A stretch of DNA of 64,000 bases from positions 105,445 to 169,444 of the forward strand of contig CAVRRE010000015.1 in NCBI GenBank assembly GCA_963723535.1. The letters are read 5' to 3'. The position numbers and the translations under genes are program-made. Origin of the DNA: an uncultured Acidobacteriota bacterium. Its GTDB lineage: Bacteria > Acidobacteriota > Thermoanaerobaculia > UBA5066 > Gp7-AA6. The stretch's first letter is position 1; each line of letters opens with the position of its first letter. The notes below the pieces were generated by a model that worked only from the letters and a program-made list of their open reading frames with translations, made no database searches and was not told the origin of the DNA. Below are positions 8,546-22,563 of this stretch, piece by piece.

Positions 8546-10451
8546 ATGCGCGGCACGGTGCGTCTCCGAAAATCCACGCGCATCTGGATCGCGGTCTTCC
8601 TCGTCGCGGCGGCCGGCGGCGCCCTCATCGATCGACTCTCGTCCGAGGCGCGGCTGCGTCGTCTCGATTCTGCTGTGCATCGCCCTGGTGGCGCTCCTGG
8701 TGCTCCTCGTCCGGGGTACGGCGGCGCTCTTCCGACTGATCGTCCGCCGCACCGCCCTGCGGCTCGCGTTCTCGTACTTCCTGATCGGTGTCGTGCCCAT
8801 TCCGCTGGTCGCGGCGCTCCTCTTTCTCGCGTCCTACATCGTCGCCCACCAGTACATGGCCAACCGCATCCGCCGCGAGGTCACGGCCGTCGGCGAGGCC
8901 GCGGTGTCGAGCCGCTCGGATCTTCCCCGGGCCTCGGCGCAGGGCGGCCGCGTGGAGGCCTCGACTGTGGCCTGGCTGAAGCCCGGCGCTTCCGCGCCCT
9001 GGATCGAGGCCCTCTCGCGGCCCGGGTTCCTCGTGGCCGACGAGAGGCTCTGGCTCGTCGCTCCCGACCGGCGCACCGGAGCTCCTCCGGGGAGCGGCGC
9101 CGTGCGGTTTCTCGACCTCTCCGATCCCGCCTCCCCCTGGCTCCAGCAGGTCGCGGACCGTACGGGCTACGTCATCGGCGCCGAGGCGAGCGAGGCCTCC
9201 GAGGAGACTCGCGGGGTCACGATCAGCTCGGAAACCCCCGAGAAGCCGGGCCCGAAGATCCTCGAACCGCCCGAGCGGCGGCCCGCCGCAGCGCCGGCAC
9301 CCGGGACCGGGCTGATGCAGAGCGAGTGGATCCACGCCTTCTATCTCGAGACGGTGCTCGACGCCCCGGCCGGGCCGAAATCCGACGTCGCGGTGCTGAC
9401 CGGGACGGCCTCGCCGCGCCTGCTCGTCGACCAGCTCTTCGCGCAGGGCGTCAAGGAGGTCGGCCGAATTTTCTGGATCGCCTTCGTGTCGGTCGCGGGC
9501 GTGCTCCTGATCGTCTACTTCGCGGCCCTCGTGATCGCGTTCGTTCTCGTCGGGTCGCTCGTGCGCAACGTCAACCGGCTGACCCGGGCCACGCAGGCCG
9601 TCGCTCGCGGCGACTTCTCGGTGCGCATCCAGTCCCGCTCCCGCGACCAGGTCGGCGACCTCACGCGTTCCTTCGACGGGATGGCCGAGTCCATCCAGAA
9701 GCTCCTGGTCGAGACCGCCGAGAAGCAGCGGATCCAGAGCGAGCTCCAAATCGCCCGCACGATCCAGCACAAGCTGCTGCCGCCCGCGGAAGCGTCGCGG
9801 CCCGGGTTCTCCGTGCTCGCGCACTTCGAGCCCGTCGCCGAGATCGGGGGCGACTACTACGACTACATCGAGATGCCGGACGGCCGGACGGCCATCGCTC
9901 TCGGCGACGTCTCCGGGCACGGGCTGCCCACCGGTCTCCTTGTGGCCATGGCGAAGGCCGCGCTCGCGACCCTGCTCGAGGCCGGCCATTCCGGCGCCGA
10001 GCTCTTCGGCCGGCTCAACGACCTCATTCACCGCTCGACCGAGACGCGCCACTACATGACCCTGGTCCTGCTCGCCTACGACCCCCGGACCCGGCGCGGC
10101 CTGCTGACGAACGCCGGCCAGCTCGCGCCTTACCGGATCTCGGGAGGCCGCGTCGAGGCCCTCTCGCTTCCGGGCCTGCCCCTCGGCCTCTTCCCCGACC
10201 GCTCCTTTCCGGAGGAGGAGTACACGTTCGGCTCCGGCGACATGGTCGTCTTTCTGACCGACGGCTTCGTCGAGGCGGTCGACGCCAACGATGAGGCGTT
10301 CGGTTTCGAGCGGCTCGAATCTCTGCTCGCGGCGCATGCGGCAGGCGGCGCGCCGGAGGTCCGCGACGCGCTCCTTGCGGCCGTCAACGCCCACACCGGA
10401 GGTCGCGCGGCGGACGACGACCGCACCCTCCTCATCCTGACGCTCGGGTAG
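8546..10451 (+). CDS. HAMP-domain membrane sensor fused to a PP2C-type (SpoIIE/RsbU-like) serine phosphatase; one frameshift near 8650
   Basis: N-terminal TM segments MRGTVRLRKSTRIWIAVFLVAAAGG..|..LLCIALVALLVLL, a second TM, then HAMP (NVNRLTRATQAVARGDFSVRIQSRSRDQVGDLTRSFDGMAESIQKL). PP2C motifs follow: EIGGDYYDYIEMPDGRTAIALGDVSGHGLPTGLLVAMAK ... VVFLTDGFVEA. Confidence 0.8.
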
Positions 10452-10524
10452 TCCGGCCCGGGAAAGCACCGACTCGTCCCCAACCCGAGCCGGGACGGCG
10501 TGCCTCGTCCACAATCCACGCGCC

Positions 10525-11592
10525 ATGAAACAACTCGTCCTGGCCCTGCTCCTCTCGCTCCCCGCGGCGACACCGCTCCTCGCCGATTCGACGGCCACGA
10601 AGACGCGCACCGTCACCCGCCTGGCCGACGGCGTCTGGACGATCCGCCACCCCGATGCGCCCGACACGTTTCCGCAGAGCAACACGCTGGTGATCGTCGG
10701 CGATCACGGTGTGCTCGTCGTGGATTCGTGCCTTCTCCCGTCTTCAGCCCGGGAAGACATCGCCCAGATCCGGCAGTGGACAAGCAAACCGGTGACCTAC
10801 CTCGTCAACACGCACTGGCATTTCGACCATACGCTCGGCAACGCCGCGTATCTCGAGGCGTATCCGGCGATCCAGATCGTCGCCACGCGGCACACGCAGA
10901 AGACGATCGCCGACTGGAACCCCGGCGCCGTCGCCCGGTATCCCGCTCGCGGCGACCGCTTCCGCAAGATTCTCGAGTCCGGCAAAAATCCCGACGGGCG
11001 TCCTCTGACCGAGGGCGAGCGGAAGGACTACGAACGCTCCATCGCCGGCCTGGCTCCGGTCGTCGCCGAGATGAAGAACGTGGTCCAGGTCGTGCCCAAC
11101 GTGGCCTTCGATCGCGAGCTCCGGGTGGACCTGGGCGGACGGGCGGTCGAGATCCGCTTCCTCGGCCGCGGCAACACCGGCGGCGACACCATCGTGTACC
11201 TCCCGAAGGAGAAGATCCTCGCGACGGGCGACCTGCTGGTGCATCCCGTGCCTTATCTCTTCGGGGGCTTCCCCCTCGACCATCCCCGCACCCTCCGCGC
11301 GATGGCCGAGCTCGACGCGACGACGATCGTGCCCGGCCACGGCGAGATCCTGCGGGACAAGAGCTACATCGTCCAGGTGGCCGAGTTCCTCGAAGCGTCG
11401 AATGCGGCGATGGAGGCCGAGGTGAACTCGGGGAAGACCCTCGAGGAGGTGCAGGCGTCGTTTCCCAAGACATTCGATGTCGCGACGTGGCGCACGAAGT
11501 TCGCCGGGACCAGCCTCGAGGACGCCGAGTTCTTCGACGGCACGTTCGACGGTCTCATCAAGGCCTCCTACAACCAGATCAAGGCCCGATAG
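10525..11592 (+). CDS. MBL-fold metallo-hydrolase with signal peptide, intact
   Basis: MKQLVLALLLSLPAATPLLA signal peptide. Metal-binding motifs HWHFDHTLGN and D...H (ATGDLLVHPVP...GHGE) are typical of the metallo-beta-lactamase superfamily. Confidence 0.8.
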   Translation: MKQLVLALLLSLPAATPLLADSTATKTRTVTRLADGVWTIRHPDAPDTFPQSNTLVIVGDHGVLVVDSCLLPSSAREDIAQIRQWTSKPVTYLVNTHWHFDHTLGNAAYLEAYPAIQIVATRHTQKTIADWNPGAVARYPARGDRFRKILESGKNPDGRPLTEGERKDYERSIAGLAPVVAEMKNVVQVVPNVAFDRELRVDLGGRAVEIRFLGRGNTGGDTIVYLPKEKILATGDLLVHPVPYLFGGFPLDHPRTLRAMAELDATTIVPGHGEILRDKSYIVQVAEFLEASNAAMEAEVNSGKTLEEVQASFPKTFDVATWRTKFAGTSLEDAEFFDGTFDGLIKASYNQIKAR

Positions 11593-13910: not shown

Positions 13911-14861
13911 ATGGCGGTGAAGAAAGCGGTCAAGCGCCGCAAGAAGGCCGAGGCGAAGTCCCGAGGCATCGAAGCGAGCGAGGCCGCGGAGGGAACGCCG
14001 TCCCCGGCCGCCACGGCCCTCGCCGAAGCCGTCCGCGAGGATGGCGGAACGGTGCTCGCGGTCTACCGCGATCCCCTCGGCGGACACTGGCAGCTCCTGG
14101 CCGCGCTGCCCATCGAACGGGTCGAGCCGACGCCCTTCCAGCGGGACCTCTCCGAGACCCACGTCAAACGGCTGACCGGCGTCATCGACGCCCTCGGCCG
14201 CTTCCTCGACCCGATCATCGCCGTCCGCGGCCCCGACGGGAAGTACCTCACCCCCAACGGCCACCACCGCCTGGCCTCGCTTCGCAACCTCGGCGCGCGC
14301 TCCGTGACGGCGCTCGTGCTTCCCGAGCCCGAAATCGCCTACAAGATCCTGGCCCTCAACACCGAGAAGGCGCACAACCTCCGCGAGAAGTCGCTCGAGG
14401 TCATCCGCATGGCGCGGGACCTCGCCGAGCGCGACCGCCTTGCCGAGACCGACTACGCGCTCGAGTTCGAAGAGCCCGCGTTCCTGACGCTCGGCGTCTG
14501 CTACGAGAAGAACGGCCGGTTCGCCGGCGGCGCGTACCACCCGATCCTCAAGCGGATCGACGCGTTTCTCGATCAGCCTCTCGCGAAGTCTCTCGAGGTC
14601 CGCGCCGCCCGCTCGGAGAAGCTCGGCGAGCTCGAGGAGGCCGTGTCCGCCGCCATGAAGGCCCTCAAGGACAAGGGCTTCGACAGTCCCTACCTGAGAA
14701 CCTTCGTCATCGCCCGCATCAATCCCCTCCGGTTCCAGCGGGGGGCAAAGGCCGACTTCGACGAGACGATCGAAAAGATGCTGGCGTCCGCCCGGAAGTT
14801 CAAGGCCGACTCCGTCAAGCCCGAGCAGCTCGCCCGGGCGGGCGGTTCCGCCGAGGAGTAG
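13911..14861 (+). CDS. ParB/sulfiredoxin-fold (ParB N-terminal-like) domain protein with a Lys/Arg-rich N-terminal tail
   Basis: MAVKKAVKRRKKAEAKSRG..., then IERVEPTPFQRDLSETHVKRLTGVIDALGRFLDPIIAV...LTPNGHHRLASLRNLG (ParB/Srx-like arginine/histidine patch), then a helical C-terminal domain. No adjacent parA. Confidence 0.6.
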   Translation: MAVKKAVKRRKKAEAKSRGIEASEAAEGTPSPAATALAEAVREDGGTVLAVYRDPLGGHWQLLAALPIERVEPTPFQRDLSETHVKRLTGVIDALGRFLDPIIAVRGPDGKYLTPNGHHRLASLRNLGARSVTALVLPEPEIAYKILALNTEKAHNLREKSLEVIRMARDLAERDRLAETDYALEFEEPAFLTLGVCYEKNGRFAGGAYHPILKRIDAFLDQPLAKSLEVRAARSEKLGELEEAVSAAMKALKDKGFDSPYLRTFVIARINPLRFQRGAKADFDETIEKMLASARKFKADSVKPEQLARAGGSAEE

Positions 14862-14865
14862 CCGA

Positions 14866-15670
14866 GTGAGCCCTTCCCGCCTTCCCCTCCGCTTCGCCGC
14901 ACTGGGGCTCCTCGCCGCCCTGCCCGGGCTCGCCCAGCCGGCCGCCCCGGACCTGCGGACCGCGAAGCTCGTGGATCTCACCCATGCCTTCGACCGCGAC
15001 ACGATCTACTGGCCGACGTCGCCGTCCGCGTTCGAGCTCAAGACGCTGGCCGACGGCCAGACGCCCGGAGGCTGGTTCTACCGGTCGAATGCGCTCTGCA
15101 CTCCCGAGCATGGCGGCACGCACCTCGATGCGCCGAGCCACTTCGCGAAGGGCGGGCTCTCCGCCGACCAGATCCCCCTGCGCCGGCTCATCGCGCCGGC
15201 CGCGGTCCTCGACGTGCGTGCCGCGGCGGCGAAGGACCCCGACTATCGCCTGACGCTCGACGACGTGAAAGCGTGGGAGAAGGCGCACGGCGCCATCCCC
15301 GCCGGAACGATCGTGCTCCTGCGGACGGGCTGGAGCCTCCGCTGGCCGAACCGCAAGGCGTACCTCGGCGACGACACGCCGGGGGACGCCTCGAAGCTCC
15401 ACTTCCCCTCGTACGGAGAGGACGCGGCGAAGCACCTGGTCTCGGTCCGGAAAGTCGGCGCGCTCGGGGTGGACACGGCGTCCATCGACTATGGCGCGTC
15501 GAAAGACTTCGTGGTGCACGTCGATCGCCAACGGAGCCGATGTGTTCGGCCTCGAGAACCTCGCCCGCCTCGACGAGCTGCCGGAGTGGGGCGCCTGGGT
15601 CGTCGCGCTGCCGATGAAGATCGCCGGCGGATCGGGCGGGCCTCTCCGGATCGTCGCGCTCGTCCCGTGA
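14866..15670 (+). CDS. putative cyclase-family (kynurenine formamidase-like) hydrolase, secreted; frameshift near 15520
   Basis: Signal peptide MSPSRLPLRFAALGLLAALPGLA. Cyclase-family motifs LVDLTHAFD...HGGTHLDAPSHF...GVDTASID. The C-terminus GADVFGLENLARLDELPEWGAWVVALPMKIAGGSGGPLRIVALVP* lies in a shifted frame. Its stop overlaps the kdd GTG start. Confidence 0.7.
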
Positions 15671-16714
15671 CGGCGCCGCATCCCTTCGGACTCCACCGCT
15701 CGCTCGATCCGCCCGGCGTCCTGCCGCAGGTGGCCCGCCGGCTCGATGCGACCCCGCGCGCGCTCGAGAACGAGATCGCCGTCTCGGTGCGCGCCCTCTC
15801 GATCGACTCGGCGTCCTTCCGCCAGCTTCGCGAGACCGAAGCGGCGACGAAGGAAAGCATCCGCGACCAGGTCGCCCGGATCGTGCGCGAGCGCGGCAAG
15901 ATGCAGAATCCGGTCACGGGCTCGGGCGGAATGCTTCTCGGCGAAGTCGCCGCGGTCGGGACCGCCCATCCTGCCGCCGGGACGCTCGCGCCCGGAACAC
16001 CCATCGCGACGCTCGTCTCGCTGACGCTCACGCCGCTGCATCTCGACTCGATCGGCGCCGTCCATGCGGCGACCGAGCGCGTCGAGGTTTCGGGCACCGC
16101 GATCCTTTTCGCCCGGACGCTCTTCGCCCGGCTGCCCGAAGACTTTCCCGAAGAAGTCGCCCTCGCCGCCTTCGACGTCGCCGGCGCGCCGGCCGGGGTT
16201 CTGCGCGATGCCCGGGCCGGCGACACCGTCCTCGTGATCGGCACCGGCAAGGCCGGCCTGCTGTGCCTGGCGGCCGCGCGGGAGAGAAGTCGGCGCGGCG
16301 GGCCGCGTTCTCGCCGTCGAGCCCGGCCCCGCGGCCGCCGAGCGGGCCCGGGCGCTCGGCTTCGCGGACGCGGTCTTCCAGCTCGACGCGCGGGATCCCG
16401 TGGCGATGCTCGACGCGATCGGGGCGGCCACGAACGGCCGCCTCGCCGACCTCGTCGTCAACGTCGCCAACGCGTCCGGTACCGAGTCCGCGACCGTCCT
16501 CTGCGCCCGCGACGAAGGCGCCGTGATCTTCTTCGGGATGGCGACCTCTTTTTCCGCCGCGGCGCTCGGCGCGGAGGGCCTCGCGAAACCGACGCGGCTC
16601 TCGATCGGCAACGGGTTCGTGCCCGGCCACGACCGGACCGCCCTCGACCTGCTCCGGCGCCACCCGGCGCTCGCCCGGGCTTTCGCGTCGCTCTCGGGCG
16701 GCCCTCCCGCGTGA
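15667..16714 (+). CDS. kdd: L-erythro-3,5-diaminohexanoate dehydrogenase; two frameshifts (~16270, ~16380)
   Basis: VTAPHPFGLHRSLDPPGVLPQVARRLDATPRALENEIAVSVRALSIDSASFRQLRE...MQNPVTGSGGMLLGEV...GDTVLVIGTGKAGLLCLAAAR, with C-terminus MLDAIGAATNGRLADLVVNVANASGTESATVLCARDEGAVIFFGMATSF...GFVPGHDRTALDLLRRHP. Matches the Kdd family of the lysine fermentation pathway, and kamDE/kal/kce follow directly. Confidence 0.75.
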
Positions 16715-17340
16715 CGCACGCGGCGGCCGAGCTCGCCGAGACTCTCCGCGCTTCGGGCGCCCGCCGCGTCGCGTTCCTCGGCCTCGCGAAGAACGCCGGC
16801 AAGACGACGGCGCTGACGGCCGTGCTCGCCGAGCTCCACCGCTCGGGTGTCGTCGCCGGGACGACCTCGGCCGGCCGCGACGGCGAGGAATTCGACGCCA
16901 TCACGGGCGAGCCGAAGCCGAGATTTCGCCTCTACCCCGGCCAGCTCGTCGCCTCCGCGGAGACGACCTTCGCGGCGGCGACGTTTCCGGTCTCGGAGCT
17001 CGCGACGCTCCCCTTCTCGACCCGGTTCGGTCCCGTCCAGCTCCGACGGGCCGAGGGCGAGGGCGAGATCGAAGTCATCGGGCCGTCGACGGCCTCGCAG
17101 CTGGCGCGCACCGCCGCGGCGCTCGAAGCGGCCGGCGCGGAGCTCGTGCTGCTCGACGGTGCGGTCGGGCGGCGCGCCTTCGCGGCCGGACGGGTGTCCG
17201 ACGGGATCGTCCTCTCCGTCGGAATGTCGGCCGGCGAGACCCTCCCCGCCGTCCTCGCCGCGGCGGCCTCGGCCGTCGAGCTCATCCAGCTGCGGCGGCC
17301 CGAGGACGACGCGCCCCGGAGGGATTCGAGGGTGCCGTGA
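16711..17340 (+). CDS. P-loop NTPase-like protein of unknown function embedded in the lysine operon
   Basis: GTG start overlapping the kdd stop. Walker-A-like FLGLAKNAGKTTALTAVLAELHRSG. 209 aa, translationally coupled on both sides. Confidence 0.5.
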   Translation: MTHAAAELAETLRASGARRVAFLGLAKNAGKTTALTAVLAELHRSGVVAGTTSAGRDGEEFDAITGEPKPRFRLYPGQLVASAETTFAAATFPVSELATLPFSTRFGPVQLRRAEGEGEIEVIGPSTASQLARTAAALEAAGAELVLLDGAVGRRAFAAGRVSDGIVLSVGMSAGETLPAVLAAAASAVELIQLRRPEDDAPRRDSRVP

Positions 17341-17615
17341 CGGGCGCCGCCCTGCGCGCGGACTTCCCGTCGCCGGGCGAGGCGCTCGTCGCCGAAGACT
17401 TCACGGCGATCTTCCTCTCGCCAGCCGACCGCCGCGAGCTCGCCGAGCGCGGCGTGCGCCTCGCCGTCCGCAAGCCCGCGCGCCTTCTCGCCGTGACCGC
17501 GAATCCCACCGCGCCGGCTCGCCCGCCGCTTCCGGCCGCGCGCTTCCTGGAAGCCGTCGCGCGAGAGATGCCGGGCGTGACGATCTTCGACCTGGTGGCT
17601 GACCTGCGGTCATAG
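17337..17615 (+). CDS. small hypothetical protein (92 aa) in the lysine operon; may be the C-terminal part of the preceding P-loop protein if an indel is present
   Basis: GTGA overlap with the upstream stop. MTGAALRADFPSPGEALVAEDFTAIFLSPADRRELAERGVRLAVRKPARLL... Confidence 0.35.
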   Translation: MTGAALRADFPSPGEALVAEDFTAIFLSPADRRELAERGVRLAVRKPARLLAVTANPTAPARPPLPAARFLEAVAREMPGVTIFDLVADLRS

Positions 17616-17644: not shown

Positions 17645-19204
17645 ATGGCCTCCAAACTGGGCCTCTCTCCGGAGACGATCGCGGGCTGCCGCCGGCTCGC
17701 CCGCCAGGTCGCCGACGGCGTCCGCGCCGAGACGGAGAAATTCACGACGGTCTCGACGGAACGCACCGTTCTCCGCCTCCTCGGGGTGGACGGCGTCGAC
17801 GCCGACGAGGTCCCGCTCCCCAACCGGATCGTCGAGTCCCTTCAGGCGTGCGGGAAGCTCGGCCGGGGCTCCGCCGTCTGGATGGGCAGCGCCCTGGCCA
17901 CGGGCGCTCCGACCGTGGCGGAAGCGGCTCTCCGGCTCTCGGATCCCGGGCGGGCCGCCGCGCAGGCCGAACATCCCCGGTGGCGCGAAACCGTCGCGCC
18001 CCACGTCGAGGCCACGGTCGCGCGGATCCGGGGAATCGCGCGGAGCGCGAGCGGCGCATGGCCGGGCACCCCCCGGAGGAGAAGCCGCTGCTCTACGCGA
18101 TCGTCGCGACCGGCAACATCCACGAGGACATCGTCCAGGCGGACGCCGCCGCGCGGGCCGGCGCGCAGTGCATCGCGGTCATCCGCTCGACCGCCCAGTC
18201 CCTTCTCGACCACGTCCCCTACGGCGCCACGACTTCGGGGTTCGGAGGCACCTACGCCACCCAGGAGAACTTCCGGCTCATGCGGGCCGCTCTCGACGCG
18301 ATCGAGCCGGAGATCGGCCGCTACGTGCGCCTCGTGAACTACTGCTCCGGGCTCTGCATGCCCGAGATCGCGGCGATGGGGGCCCTCGAGCGGCTGGACA
18401 TGATGCTCAACGACGCGCTCTACGGCATCATCTTCCGCGACATCAACCCGTTGCGCACCCTCATCGACCAGAACTTTTCCCGCCGGATCAACGCCGTCGC
18501 CGGAGTCGTCATCAATACGGGAGAGGACAACTACCTGACGACCGCCGATGCGGTCGAGCAGGCCCCGGCCGTCCTCGCCTCGCAGTTCATCAACGAGCGG
18601 CTCGCGAAGGACGCCGGCCTCGAGGACTGGCAGATCGGGCTCGGGCACGCCTTCGAGATCGACCCGACCCTCGAGGACGGCCTGCTCTACGAGATCGCCC
18701 AGGCCGAAGCGGCGCGCGAGATCTTTCCCGACGCTCCGCTGAAGTACATGCCGCCGACGAAGCACATGACCGGCAACGTCTTCCGCGGCTACCAGCAGAA
18801 CACGCTCTTCGCGCTGACCTCGGTCGCGACCCGGCAGTCGATCCACCTCCTCGGCATGCTGACCGAGGCCCTCCACACGCCGTTTCTCCACGACCGGTGG
18901 CTCGCCATCGACCAGATGAAGACCCTCCGGTCGAACGCCCGGCACCTCGCGGACGAGATCCGATTCGCCCCCGATGGCCGGATCGTCCGCCGGGCGCGCG
19001 AGGTGCTCGCCGGCGCCGAGACGATCCTCGCCCGCGTCGCGAGCCACGGCCTCTTCGCGGCGCTCTCCGAAGGTGTCTTCGCGGACACGCGCGCGCCGCA
19101 AGGACGGCGGCCGCGGTTACGACGGCGTCCTGCCCAAGGACGCGGCGTACGCCAACCCGTTTCTGGAAGCCTGGACGCACGAGCTCGCGGGAGCGCGGGC
19201 GTGA
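17645..19204 (+). CDS. kamD: lysine 5,6-aminomutase alpha subunit (adenosylcobalamin/PLP-dependent); frameshifts near 18050 and 19090
   Basis: Strong similarity to Clostridium/Fusobacterium KamD: [22 protein letters not shown]...PLPN; [19 protein letters not shown]...[37 protein letters not shown]...[38 protein letters not shown]...[14 protein letters not shown]...[13 protein letters not shown]...[12 protein letters not shown]. The C-terminus ...[24 protein letters not shown] lies in a shifted frame. Confidence 0.85.
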
Positions 19205-19959
19205 GCACCCCGCGGCCGATCCGCCCCTACGGGGACAAGAAGAACGACGGCGCGGTCCAGGTCTCCTTCACGCTTCCCCTCGCCCGCTCGGCGGTCGCGA
19301 CGGAGGCCGCCAAGCGCTACGCCGCCAAGATGGGACTGCGGGAGCCCTACGTGACCCTCGCCGAGGCGATCGCCCCCGAATTCACGTTCTTCGTCGTCTA
19401 CGGGCGCGCCACCCACGACATCGACGTCGCCGCCATCACGGCCGAGGAAGCCCCGGAGGGCGCGCTCTCGCGCGAGCAGATCGACGAGGAGATCGCCCGG
19501 CGCTTCGGCCGGCGCCTGGTCGTGCTCGGCTGCGCCCTCGAATCCGACGCCCACACGGTCGGCCTCGACGCCATCTTCAACATGAAGGGCTTCGCGGGCG
19601 ACTACGGGCTCGAGCGCTACCACGGGTTCGACGCCCGCAACCTCGGCGCCCAGGTCCCGGTCGCGGAGCTCGCCCGCCTCGTCCGCGAAACCAGGGCGGA
19701 CGCGGTGCTGGTGTCCGCGACGGTGACCCAGAACGACATCCACGTCCGCCACATGACCGATCTCGTCGACATGCTCGAGGCCGAACGGCTCCGCGACCGG
19801 GTCGTCCTCATCGCCGGCGGAGCCCGTGTCGATCACGCCCTGGCCAAGGAGCTCGGCTACGACGCGGGCTTCGGCCCCGGCACGACGGCTTCGCGCGTCG
19901 CCGGGTTCCTCCTCGAGGAGCTCTCGCGGCGGCACGGCCTCCTCGGAAGCGAGCGATGA
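19201..19959 (+). CDS. kamE: lysine 5,6-aminomutase beta subunit (B12-binding), intact
   Basis: [21 protein letters not shown]...EFTFFVVYG...[34 protein letters not shown]...[62 protein letters not shown]. Contains the DxHxxG B12-binding motif and aligns along its length to KamE. GTGA overlap with kamD. Confidence 0.88.
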
Positions 19960-20339
19960 CCGAGCGGGTGCAGCTTCGCCTCCGCGTCGGAGCCGAGCAG
20001 GCGCACTACGGCGGCGGTCTCGTGGACGGCGCGTTCGTTCTGAAGCTCTTCGGCGACGCCGCCACCGAGCTCCTCATCCGCCACGACGGCGACGAGGGGC
20101 TCTTCCGCGCCTACTCCGCGGTCGACTTTCTCGCGCCCGTCCACGGAGGCGACTATCTCGAGGTCGAGGCCGAGCTCACGCGCGTCGGCAACACCTCGCG
20201 CGAAATCCGATTCGAGGCGCGCAAGGTCATCGCGCCGGGCGACGGATCCGCCGCGAGGCTTCTCGATCCGCCCCTGGTCGTCGCCCGCGCCACGGGCACC
20301 TGCGTCGTCCCGCTCGAGAAGCAGAAAGGCCGAAAGTGA
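19956..20339 (+). CDS. kal: 3-aminobutyryl-CoA ammonia-lyase (hotdog fold), intact
   Basis: [92 protein letters not shown]...[11 protein letters not shown] matches Kal of the lysine fermentation pathway. ATGA overlap with kamE. Confidence 0.8.
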
Positions 20340-21166
20340 GCGATGCGCTGCTCATCACCGTCGCGGGCGTGGGCGCCGAGGTGATGCGGTCGCAGCAGCC
20401 GGCGCTGCCTCTCCTGCCCGAGGAGGTCGGCGCGGAGTATGCGCGGGCTTACGACGCGGGCGCGACGATCGGGCACGTCCATGGCCGGAAACCCGACGGG
20501 ACGCCCACCCAGGACCTCGAGACGTTCCGGGCGTATTCCGAGGCGATCCGCGAGCGCTGCCCGATCATCCAGCAGTTCTCGACGGGAGGCGCCGTCGGCA
20601 TGGGGGTCGAGGAGCGGATCGCCGCCCTGGAGCTTCGCCCGGACATGGCGACGCTCACGCTCGGCACCTGCAACTTCGGCGACGACATCTTCGAGAATTC
20701 CCTCCCCACCATCCGGACGATCCTGGCGCGCATCCGCCAGCACGGGATCGTTCCCGAGCTCGAGATCTTCGACGTCGGAATGCTCGCGACCGCGGACGTC
20801 CTCTTCGCGAAGGGCCTCCTGACTCCCCCGGCCCACTTCGATTTCGTGCTCGGCGTGCCCGGCGCGGCCGCGGCCACCGCCGAGAACCTGACGCACTTCG
20901 CCCGCTCGATTCCGGCGGGCTGCACCTGGACGGTCGCCGGAATCGGACGCCGTCAGACGGCGATGGCCGCCATGGCCATCGCGATGGGAGGCCACGTGCG
21001 CGTCGGGTTCGAGGACAACATCTACTACCGCAAGGGCGAGCTCGCCGACTCGAACGCCCGTTTCGTCGAGCGCGTCGTCCGCATCGCCCGCGAGCTCGGG
21101 CGGGAGCCCGCCTCGATCCAGGAAGCGCGCCAGATCCTGCGCATGCCGTCGGCGTCCGCCGCTTGA
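20336..21166 (+). CDS. kce: 3-keto-5-aminohexanoate cleavage enzyme (BKACE / DUF849 family), intact
   Basis: GTGA overlap with kal. ...[10 protein letters not shown]...[56 protein letters not shown]...[18 protein letters not shown]...[37 protein letters not shown] is typical of the BKACE family. Confidence 0.8.
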
Positions 21167-22563
21167 GCGCCGCGGGCGCGCCGCAGGAAGGCCCGAAGGC
21201 CGGAGCGCCGGAGCTCGCCCGGGGCCTCGGCCTCTGGGACACGAGCCTCATGGTCCTCGGGCTCGTCATCGGCGGCGGCATCTTCCTCACTCCGCGAGCA
21301 TCGCGAAGGCGATTCCGAACGAGGGCTGGATCCTCGGCCTCTGGATCGTCGGGAGGCCTCCTCGCGATCGTCGGCGGACTCGTCTACGCCGAGATGGGCG
21401 CGATGATGCCGAAGGCCGGCGGGATGTACGTCTTCTTCCGGGAGGCGTTCGGGGAGCTGCCGGCCTTCCTCTACGCCTGGGTGGCCTTCTGGGTCATCCT
21501 CATCGGCTCCGACGCCGCCGTGGCGGTCGGCTTCGCACAGTACTTTTCGGTCTTTTTCCCATCGCTCTCGAACGCGAACGTCGTCCTGACCGCTCGGCCC
21601 GATCGCGATCACCGCGGCGCAGCTCGTCGCGGTCGCCCTCGTCGTCGTGCTCTCGGCCTCCCACTACGTGGGGGTCCGCGAGGGCGCCCGCATCCAGGGC
21701 CTCTTCACGTCGATGATCGTCCTCGCGCTGCTCTGGATCGCGGTTGGCGGAGCGTTCGCTTCGAGCGGCCGGCCGGAAGCCGCGAGCCGCGCTGACGCCC
21801 GCGGCGGCGATCTCCTTCGCCGGCGTCGGCACGGCGCTGGTGGCGATCTTCTGGACCTACTACGGCTGGAACGAGATCGTCGCCGTCGCCGGCGAGGTCG
21901 CGAACCCGAAGCGCAACCTGCCGCTCGCGCTCATCGCCGGGACGGGCCTCGTGACCCTGCTCTACGTCGCGGTCAACGCCGTCTTCCTCAAGGCGATCCC
22001 GGCCGCCGAGATGGCCGGCGTCGGCGAGCCGGCCGCGGTCGCCGCGACCCGCCTCTTCGGCAGCGGCGCCGCGTTCCTCATCGCGCTCGGCCATCACCGC
22101 CGCGGCCGCCGGCTGCACCTCGGCCGGGATCGCTCCCGGGCCGCGCATCGTCTACGCCCTCGCCAAGGACGGGCTCTTCCCGGCGGCGTTCGGGAGGGTC
22201 CATCCTCGCTTCCAGACGCCCTCGTTCGCGATCGTCGTGCAGGCGGTCTGGATGTCGCTGTTGTGCCTGTCCGGCCGTTACGACCAGCTCTACACCTACG
22301 CCACGTTCTTCGTCATCCTGGCCTACGCGGCGACCGGCCTCTCGCTCTTCGTGATGCGGCGGCGGCGCCCGGACCTCCGCCGCCCGTACCGCTGCTGGGG
22401 CTATCCCGTCGTTCCGTTTGTCTTCGTCTGCGTTCAGTCTCCTGCTCGCCGCCAACACCCTGCGCGAGCAACCCAGGGAGACGCTCGCCGGGATCGGGAT
22501 CCTGCTGCTCGGCCTGCCGGTCTACTTCAGCATGCGCCGGCGCCGCCGCAAGGCGGCTTCGTG
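21163..22563 (+). CDS. APC-family amino acid permease (candidate lysine or beta-lysine importer), multiple frameshifts
   Basis: TTG start overlapping the kce stop. GLWDTSLMVLGLVIGGGIFLTP...LAIVGGLVYAEMGAMMPKAGGMYVFFREAFGELPAFLYAWVAFWVILIGSDAAVAVGFAQYFSVFFP...LTPAAAISFAGVGTALVAIFWTYYGWNEIVAVAGEVANPKRNLPLALIAGTGLVTLLYVAVNAVFL...VHPRFQTPSFAIVVQAVWMSLL...LPVYFSMRRRRRKAAS*. At least five frame changes. Confidence 0.7.

Follow-up and report, generated by a model that had tools for sequence, protein, structure and literature searches.

A kamB-type gene apparently split by one missing base in the lysine-degradation operon of an uncultured Thermoanaerobaculia bacterium

Introduction

What lies between kdd and kamD in the lysine-degradation operon of an uncultured Acidobacteriota bacterium (Thermoanaerobaculia; UBA5066; Gp7-AA6)? 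The DNA considered here, called the window throughout, is a 64,000-nucleotide stretch of contig CAVRRE010000015.1 (assembly GCA_963723535.1, positions 105,445 to 169,444), in which two open reading frames (ORFs), ORF1 of 209 and ORF2 of 92 codons, fill the interval between the two genes. The original prediction described them as two uncharacterised ORFs that could not be placed in a known family, noted a Walker-A-like motif and 4-nt overlaps, and proposed several roles by position, among them an ATP-dependent reactivase or chaperone for the neighbouring aminomutase. The ORF coordinates, the motif (GLAKNAGKTTALTAV, residues 24-38 of ORF1) and the overlap with kdd, where the kdd stop and the ORF1 start share the GTGA at 16711-16714, are present as it described them.

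Comparison with relatives indicates that positions 16711-17615 are one 301-codon kamB-type gene, which appears split because one C is missing, and that kamD-kamE-kal-kce follow it. The explanation that we regard as very probable as a whole is that of a single kamB gene, an indel error, and a KamB protein acting as a reactivating chaperone for lysine 5,6-aminomutase (KamDE). The native clostridial 5,6-aminomutase requires a second, ATP-dependent protein, "E2", for its reactivation (PMC9081730).

One gene in two reading frames

Both ORFs match the same NCBIfam profile, NF052386 (KamB), at its two ends: ORF1 covers profile positions 1-182 with 167 bits and ORF2 positions 256-325 with 45.5 bits, so that the statement that no known family could be assigned proved wrong. 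Relatives at 65-94% identity are each a single protein of ~301 aa. In a homology search with the joined sequence, the 120 matches listed showed 65-88% identity, were 300-319 aa long and covered the whole query, the sole shorter one being P0055, which is the window's own 209-aa ORF1 in the public record. ORF2 alone clusters at ≥90% identity with P0122 (301 aa). When the 301-aa relative P0001 was used in tblastn, its residues 1-205 matched 16711-17325 in frame 1 (91% identity) and residues 208-301 matched 17331-17612 in frame 3 (85% identity), the two matches being colinear.

The exact site is given by metagenome contigs L003 and L004, which share 95.5-96% DNA identity with the window. At this point both have GGAGAGA[C]TTCGAGGG and the window has GGAGGGA-TTCGAGGG; the window thus lacks one C of the Asp205 codon, between 17324 and 17325, and restoring it gives ...APRRDFEGAVTGAAL..., the same as in P0122. 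These alignments bear out a fallback idea of the original prediction, that of a single gene of ~300 aa split by an indel; the suggested location, 17330-17345, lies just beyond the actual one. What had been taken for two coupled genes is one, and the second GTGA overlap (17337-17340, between ORF1 and ORF2) is a by-product of the frameshift. The 4-nt overlap of kdd with kamB is found in intact relatives too (in L001, KDD at 8961-10004 and KamB at 10001-10906), and kamB is translationally coupled to kdd. The window has a G+C content of 70%, at which long open frames are common and an ORF alone is therefore little evidence. Each half was compared with L001 in its own frame. The ratio of nonsynonymous to synonymous substitution rates was 0.12 for the N-terminal and 0.21 for the C-terminal half, indicating purifying selection. 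Against L003 and L004 the short C-terminal part holds too few substitutions for this ratio to be informative.

Origin of the missing base

Judging by its surroundings, the kamB split is almost certainly an assembly error. Over 12.2 kb aligned with L003 the length differences amount to 12 single-base indels, and none of any other length was seen; among them are three guaA insertions, with one indel apiece in the cyclase gene, kdd, kamB and kamD and another close to where the SpoIIE phosphatase gene begins. The kdd gene is broken by a 1-nt insertion near 16287, and a second kamD indel, near 19092, is seen in the alignment with L004. By tblastn over the 17 kb syntenic with L001, frame changes occur in eight of 15 genes, 12 in all. 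The invariant residues of the KamB family are all intact in the window protein.

As a control, frame breaks were counted by sequencing technology in related loci over the seven-gene block from cyclase to kce. Short-read contigs (n=12, ~66 kb) had none, while 11 loci from MFD Nanopore metagenome-assembled genomes (MAGs) had 28, with seven of the 11 affected and up to 14 breaks in one locus; the window has five. MFD MAGs are Nanopore-only Flye assemblies given one round of Medaka polishing (PMC12313526). The assembly studied here appears to behave like a Nanopore-only MAG, and it is from this behaviour that we infer a Nanopore origin.

Single-base indels are spread over many genes between 5740 and 23450, at about one per 1-1.5 kb. 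Among the sites are 7055, 7066, 7193, 8020, 8058, 8553, 8651, 13885, 15523, 16287, 18030, 19092 and 21300-22440. The broken genes include guaA, those for the SpoIIE phosphatase and the cyclase, kdd, an M28 peptidase-like gene, kamD with two breaks and an amino-acid permease gene with about four. Between 40000 and 56000 the codon-position GC signal switches frame or strand every 300-400 nt and long ORFs lack a clean coding signature, which suggests still denser frame errors or unusual content. Given this indel rate, short or overlapping ORFs in the window should be treated as possible gene fragments, since short "novel" ORFs, and apparent 4-nt overlaps, will often be pieces of ordinary genes.

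Family and conserved residues

The genes kamB and kamC take their names from the operon order kamA-B-C-D-E in use when kamD and kamE were cloned. The restored protein appears to be a two-domain SIMIBI-class P-loop nucleoside triphosphatase (NTPase) of the family "lysine 5,6-aminomutase reactivase subunit KamB" (NF052386). It scores 209.8 bits (E 5e-62) against this profile, in two stretches, the curated equivalog cut-off being 210 bits; the intact orthologues P0001 and P0027 reach 202.8 and 185.1 bits. No other family scores anywhere near for the restored protein.

An exhaustive search (E≤0.001) gave 1,621 related clusters at 50% identity, with a short class of ~290-305 aa and a long class of ~335-360 aa, the long members carrying an insert of 40-60 aa at the position of the kamB break. 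Conservation was taken from an alignment of 36 diverse members. Nineteen columns are invariant and all are kept in the window protein: G24, K27, N28, G30, K31 and T32 in Walker A; S53, G55, D57, G58 and E59 in the signature; D149, G150 and R154 in the Walker-B-like DGAxxR; and D62, K69, P70, G107 and G124. The NP at 265-266 is near-invariant, and N265 and P266 are present here. The window protein thus has the family motifs GxxKNxGKT, SxGxDGE, K-P, DGAxxR and TxNP.

Several other assignments were considered. MobB, the kind of housekeeping homology that the original prediction had named as arguing against a mutase-linked role, scores 14.5 bits (E 0.033) against a Pfam gathering score of 26.6, and does so in the P-loop region only, as does DUF1611 (Pfam E ~0.09). 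MCR_C (E 0.047) and YaiA (E 0.12) are chance Pfam matches of the two ORFs. Membership of the ArgK/MeaB (G3E) group was rejected, as no Pfam or NCBIfam match to it was obtained.

P0137, a member with 37% identity, is encoded without a mutase gene in its vicinity, so the wider family is not exclusively KamB. In L007 (8001-8912, 11776-13146) a family member at 37% identity with no kamDE nearby sits between PhzF-like and D-Ala-D-Ala ligase-like genes, and a gene of PF13941, to which the glutamate-mutase MutL-type reactivase belongs, lies a few kb away. The KamB family at large may serve other partners.

Predicted structure

The structural comparison suggested in the original prediction gave a fold by modelling and no hit within the E threshold by searching. 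The AlphaFold2 model of P0001 is a single compact protein (pLDDT 93, pTM 0.91). As modelled, it has a P-loop NTPase fold with a Walker A and an acidic Walker B strand, of the SIMIBI class (MinD, SRP, DTBS, G3E type), and its last ~95 residues form an extra domain with no structural match. Foldseek returned nothing from the PDB at E≤1e-3, and a sequence profile search of the PDB found no solved relative, the best matches being ClpC (E 0.04) and MobB (E 0.6).

Dethiobiotin synthetase (BioD) is a single-domain biosynthetic enzyme which, unlike KamB, lacks the C-terminal domain; it has no sequence-family match to KamB and its genomic context is unrelated. MeaB/MMAA, the G3E GTPase chaperone of methylmalonyl-CoA mutase, also has no sequence-family match to KamB and lacks the extra C-terminal domain, and its structural similarity to KamB is below that of dethiobiotin synthetase or MinD-type proteins.

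Genomic context

Co-occurrence with kamDE, a check that the original prediction had proposed, was examined in 80 KamB-family loci from species-representative genomes. A kamD gene lies within 10 kb in 65 of them, and kamD or kamC in 77; in two of the remaining three a contig end truncates the locus. The gene order in each of the 20 Acidobacteriota loci is kdd-kamB-kamD-kamE-kal-kce. KamC was found within 10 kb in none of these 20, nor by tblastn in the 64-kb window. The same holds for kamA (lysine 2,3-aminomutase), in the 20 loci within 10 kb and in the window, and its absence implies that the source of beta-lysine is encoded elsewhere or that the substrate is another one, e.g. D-lysine.

Among the other 60 loci KamC adjoins KamB in 35, and 22 have kamD without KamC, including those of Solirubrobacteraceae, Desulfobacterales, Rhodoferax and an Asgard archaeon. 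A KamD-KamE-KamB set with no other pathway genes is found in Solirubrobacteraceae and in a nonribosomal peptide synthetase/polyketide synthase (NRPS/PKS) cluster, which ties KamB to the mutase itself and not to the rest of the pathway. The latter cluster, on an ENA metagenome contig (L006, 5696-9002), also has MbtH and MatE genes, and suggests use of the 5,6-aminomutase product as a natural-product building block.

The locus of Aminicella lysinilytica (L082), which shows the canonical arrangement, reads, in order, sigma-54 regulator, kdd, kamA, KamB, KamC, KamD, KamE. Its KamB has 339 aa (394 bits), and its KamC, of 547 aa (579 bits), belongs to NF052383, "reactivase ATPase KamC", and contains MutS_V (MutS domain V). 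This KamB-KamC order agrees with the "HP" next to "mutS" that has been drawn in the Fusobacterium nucleatum lysine cluster since at least 2011 (PMC3149608). The novelty implied by the original prediction therefore falls away: the family is named, its genes have been drawn in lysine-fermentation clusters, and the finding of the locus is an ordinary one. KamB of lysine-fermenting Bacillota (e.g. L082, 9980-10999) shares GxxKNxGKT, SxGxDGE, DGAxxR and TxNP with the window protein, together with the two-domain layout and the place beside kamD-kamE in a lysine-degradation operon. The differences are that identity to such members is only ~28-40%, that the window protein, with 301 aa and 209.8 bits, is without the central insert, and that KamC (the MutS_V ATPase) and kamA are adjacent in the Bacillota locus and not here. 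The N-terminal domain of the sigma-54 activator of A. lysinilytica (L082, 5075-7207) matches the KDD family with 139.7 bits and may be a sensor derived from a pathway enzyme.

The features of the region are collected in Table 1. The kamD start lies 29 nt past the kamB stop. The gene after kamD matches its L001 orthologue at 93% identity in one frame (tblastn), and in the kal-kce stretch both L001 orthologues also match the window in single frames. Directly upstream of kdd (13950-15670; L001 7212-8964) are two conserved genes oriented like kdd. The product of one, of 316 aa, has only weak ParB/Noc-like and SerK-like matches; that of the other is of the Cyclase family (PF04199, arylformamidase-like) with a signal-peptide-like N-terminus. 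An Rfam scan of the window detected no RNA family.

Table 1. Coordinates of the kamB-type gene, its parts and its neighbours in the window
Feature	Position	Strand	Remarks
ORF1	16711..17340	+	frame 1, GTG start, 209 aa
ORF2	17337..17615	+	frame 3, GTG start, TAG stop, 92 aa
kamB-like gene, putative KamB-family P-loop NTPase	16711..17615	+	301 codons after one-base restoration
kamB N-terminal part, predicted SIMIBI-type P-loop NTPase domain, residues 1-205	16711..17324	+	frame 1
Walker A / P-loop GLAKNAGKTT, residues 24-33	16780..16809	+	conserved in 36-member alignment
Family signature TSAGRDGE, residues 52-59	16864..16887	+	conserved in 36-member alignment
Walker-B-like strand and loop LLDGAVGRRA, residues 146-155	17146..17175	+	follows modelled strand E145-151
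Single-base deletion, C of GAC codon (Asp205)	17324..17325	+	alignment to L003, L004; same site vs L001
kamB C-terminal part, residues 206-301 and TAG stop, C-terminal domain	17325..17615	+	frame 3
TxNP motif, N265/P266	17502-17507	+	within kamB C-terminal part
kdd (L-erythro-3,5-diaminohexanoate dehydrogenase)	15667..16714	+	L001 orthologue 226.7 bits to NF052381
kamD	17645..19204	+	L001 orthologue 747 bits to NF052384; 1-nt indels near 18030, 19092
Gene after kamD (kamE by order kamD-kamE-kal-kce)	19201..19959	+	L001 orthologue 327.8 bits to NF052385
kal-kce stretch (by operon order)	19956..21166	+	L001 orthologues: NF052388 168.5 bits (cut-off 160), NF052387 379 bits (cut-off 382)

Proposed function and alternative explanations

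Because the linkage to kamDE is near-constant, NCBI names the family a reactivase subunit and the fold is that of an NTPase, KamB is most likely a nucleotide-dependent reactivating chaperone for KamDE. The guess of an ATP-dependent reactivase or chaperone in the original prediction agrees with the family name and with this linkage; for a regulatory kinase-like factor, also suggested there, we found no support. KamB would bind and hydrolyse a nucleotide, probably ATP, and this would open up suicide-inactivated KamDE at its B12-binding domain, letting the damaged cobalamin leave and fresh adenosylcobalamin bind. KamB would then do what biochemical work has attributed to the ATP-dependent "E2" component of the clostridial enzyme, and in the present Acidobacteriota lineage would do so without KamC, the MutS-like ATPase that accompanies it in Bacillota. 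Nucleotide-driven release of damaged cobalamin, the function proposed here for KamB, is known from DdrAB/GdrAB, EutA and GlmL(MutL) (Toraya and Mori 1999, as cited in PMC9081730). MeaB and DdrAB, the latter acting on diol dehydratase, are functionally like the proposed KamB but belong to a different protein family.

A number of points weigh against this explanation. The restored protein falls 0.2 bits, and P0001 7 bits, under the NF052386 cut-off, and the central insert of the profile (~positions 190-255) is absent from the restored protein, which accounts for the 0.2-bit shortfall. The two-subunit KamBC reactivase of the NCBI naming cannot be encoded at this locus, since KamC was found neither in the window nor in any of the 20 related loci. 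The nearest solved fold to the model is dethiobiotin synthetase, an enzyme rather than a chaperone. Support for the reactivase role comes from a database name, from gene context and from the old E2 biochemistry, and no paper on KamB activity was found in the literature searched. The deletion itself is judged from assembled sequences, and a real, very recent mutation is conceivable.

That the gene is intact and KamB does something other than reactivation we consider unlikely. Under this reading it could be a MeaB-like NTPase for cofactor delivery or gating, a dethiobiotin-synthetase-like, ATP-dependent enzyme with a diamino-acid intermediate as its substrate, or a regulator that confers ATP allostery on the aminomutase. 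The shortage of biochemical literature leaves room for it, and the native lysine 5,6-aminomutase (5,6-LAM) shows an ATP allostery which is lost in recombinant KamDE (PMC3958899). However, KamB accompanies KamDE even where kdd, kce and kal are missing, which argues against a role on downstream intermediates, and the NCBI curators treat it as a reactivase subunit together with the ATPase KamC. Delivery, gating and reactivation moreover overlap mechanistically, so that the difference is partly one of emphasis. As to the break in the gene, a real frameshift, which would make kamB a recent pseudogene or the source of two polypeptides (a 209-aa P-loop domain, and a 92-aa C-terminal domain started at GTG 17337), is very unlikely. 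The break does fall at a domain boundary, where the longer members carry their insert, GGAGG stands 14 nt upstream of GTG 17337, and the reliance on assembled sequences noted above speaks for it as well; but in relatives the GGAGG codes for part of the protein (R-R-D), and all of them have one ORF, none the two-gene arrangement. The 12 kb hold, besides, 11 other single-base indels, among them three of guaA, two of kamD and one of kdd, and if all were real the cell would be without the whole pathway and without guaA; breaks of this kind are absent from the operon in short-read relatives and many in Nanopore MAGs. Programmed +1 ribosomal frameshifting, by which both frames would be joined in translation, can scarcely be credited. 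All that speaks for it is that the halves of one conserved protein are encoded in two overlapping frames, yet in relatives with 95-96% DNA identity the ORF runs through, with the extra C exactly there, the frameshift is absent from 12 of 12 short-read loci, the sequence around AGG GAT TCG AGG holds no slippery heptamer or shift-prone stop context, and equivalent frame breaks are scattered over neighbouring genes.

Implications

In soil Thermoanaerobaculia the lysine-degradation operon thus includes a divergent KamB of the short form, with no KamC within 10 kb. We tentatively suggest, as a possibility short of probable, that short-form KamB without KamC, its Walker A and B motifs being fully conserved, could be a self-sufficient, single-subunit NTPase chaperone/reactivase for the B12/PLP-dependent lysine 5,6-aminomutase, the minimal ancestral core of "E2", to which KamC would be a Bacillota add-on. 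This may apply to Acidobacteriota (Thermoanaerobaculia), and likewise to Solirubrobacteraceae, Desulfobacterales, Rhodoferax and an Asgard archaeon. Where KamDE is to be used as a biocatalyst KamB could matter, as the recombinant enzyme inactivates quickly. Linkage to kamDE is almost constant for KamB, also outside the fermentation pathway, while KamC occurs at some of the loci only; of the two, KamB is therefore the stronger candidate for a core factor maintaining lysine 5,6-aminomutase activity.

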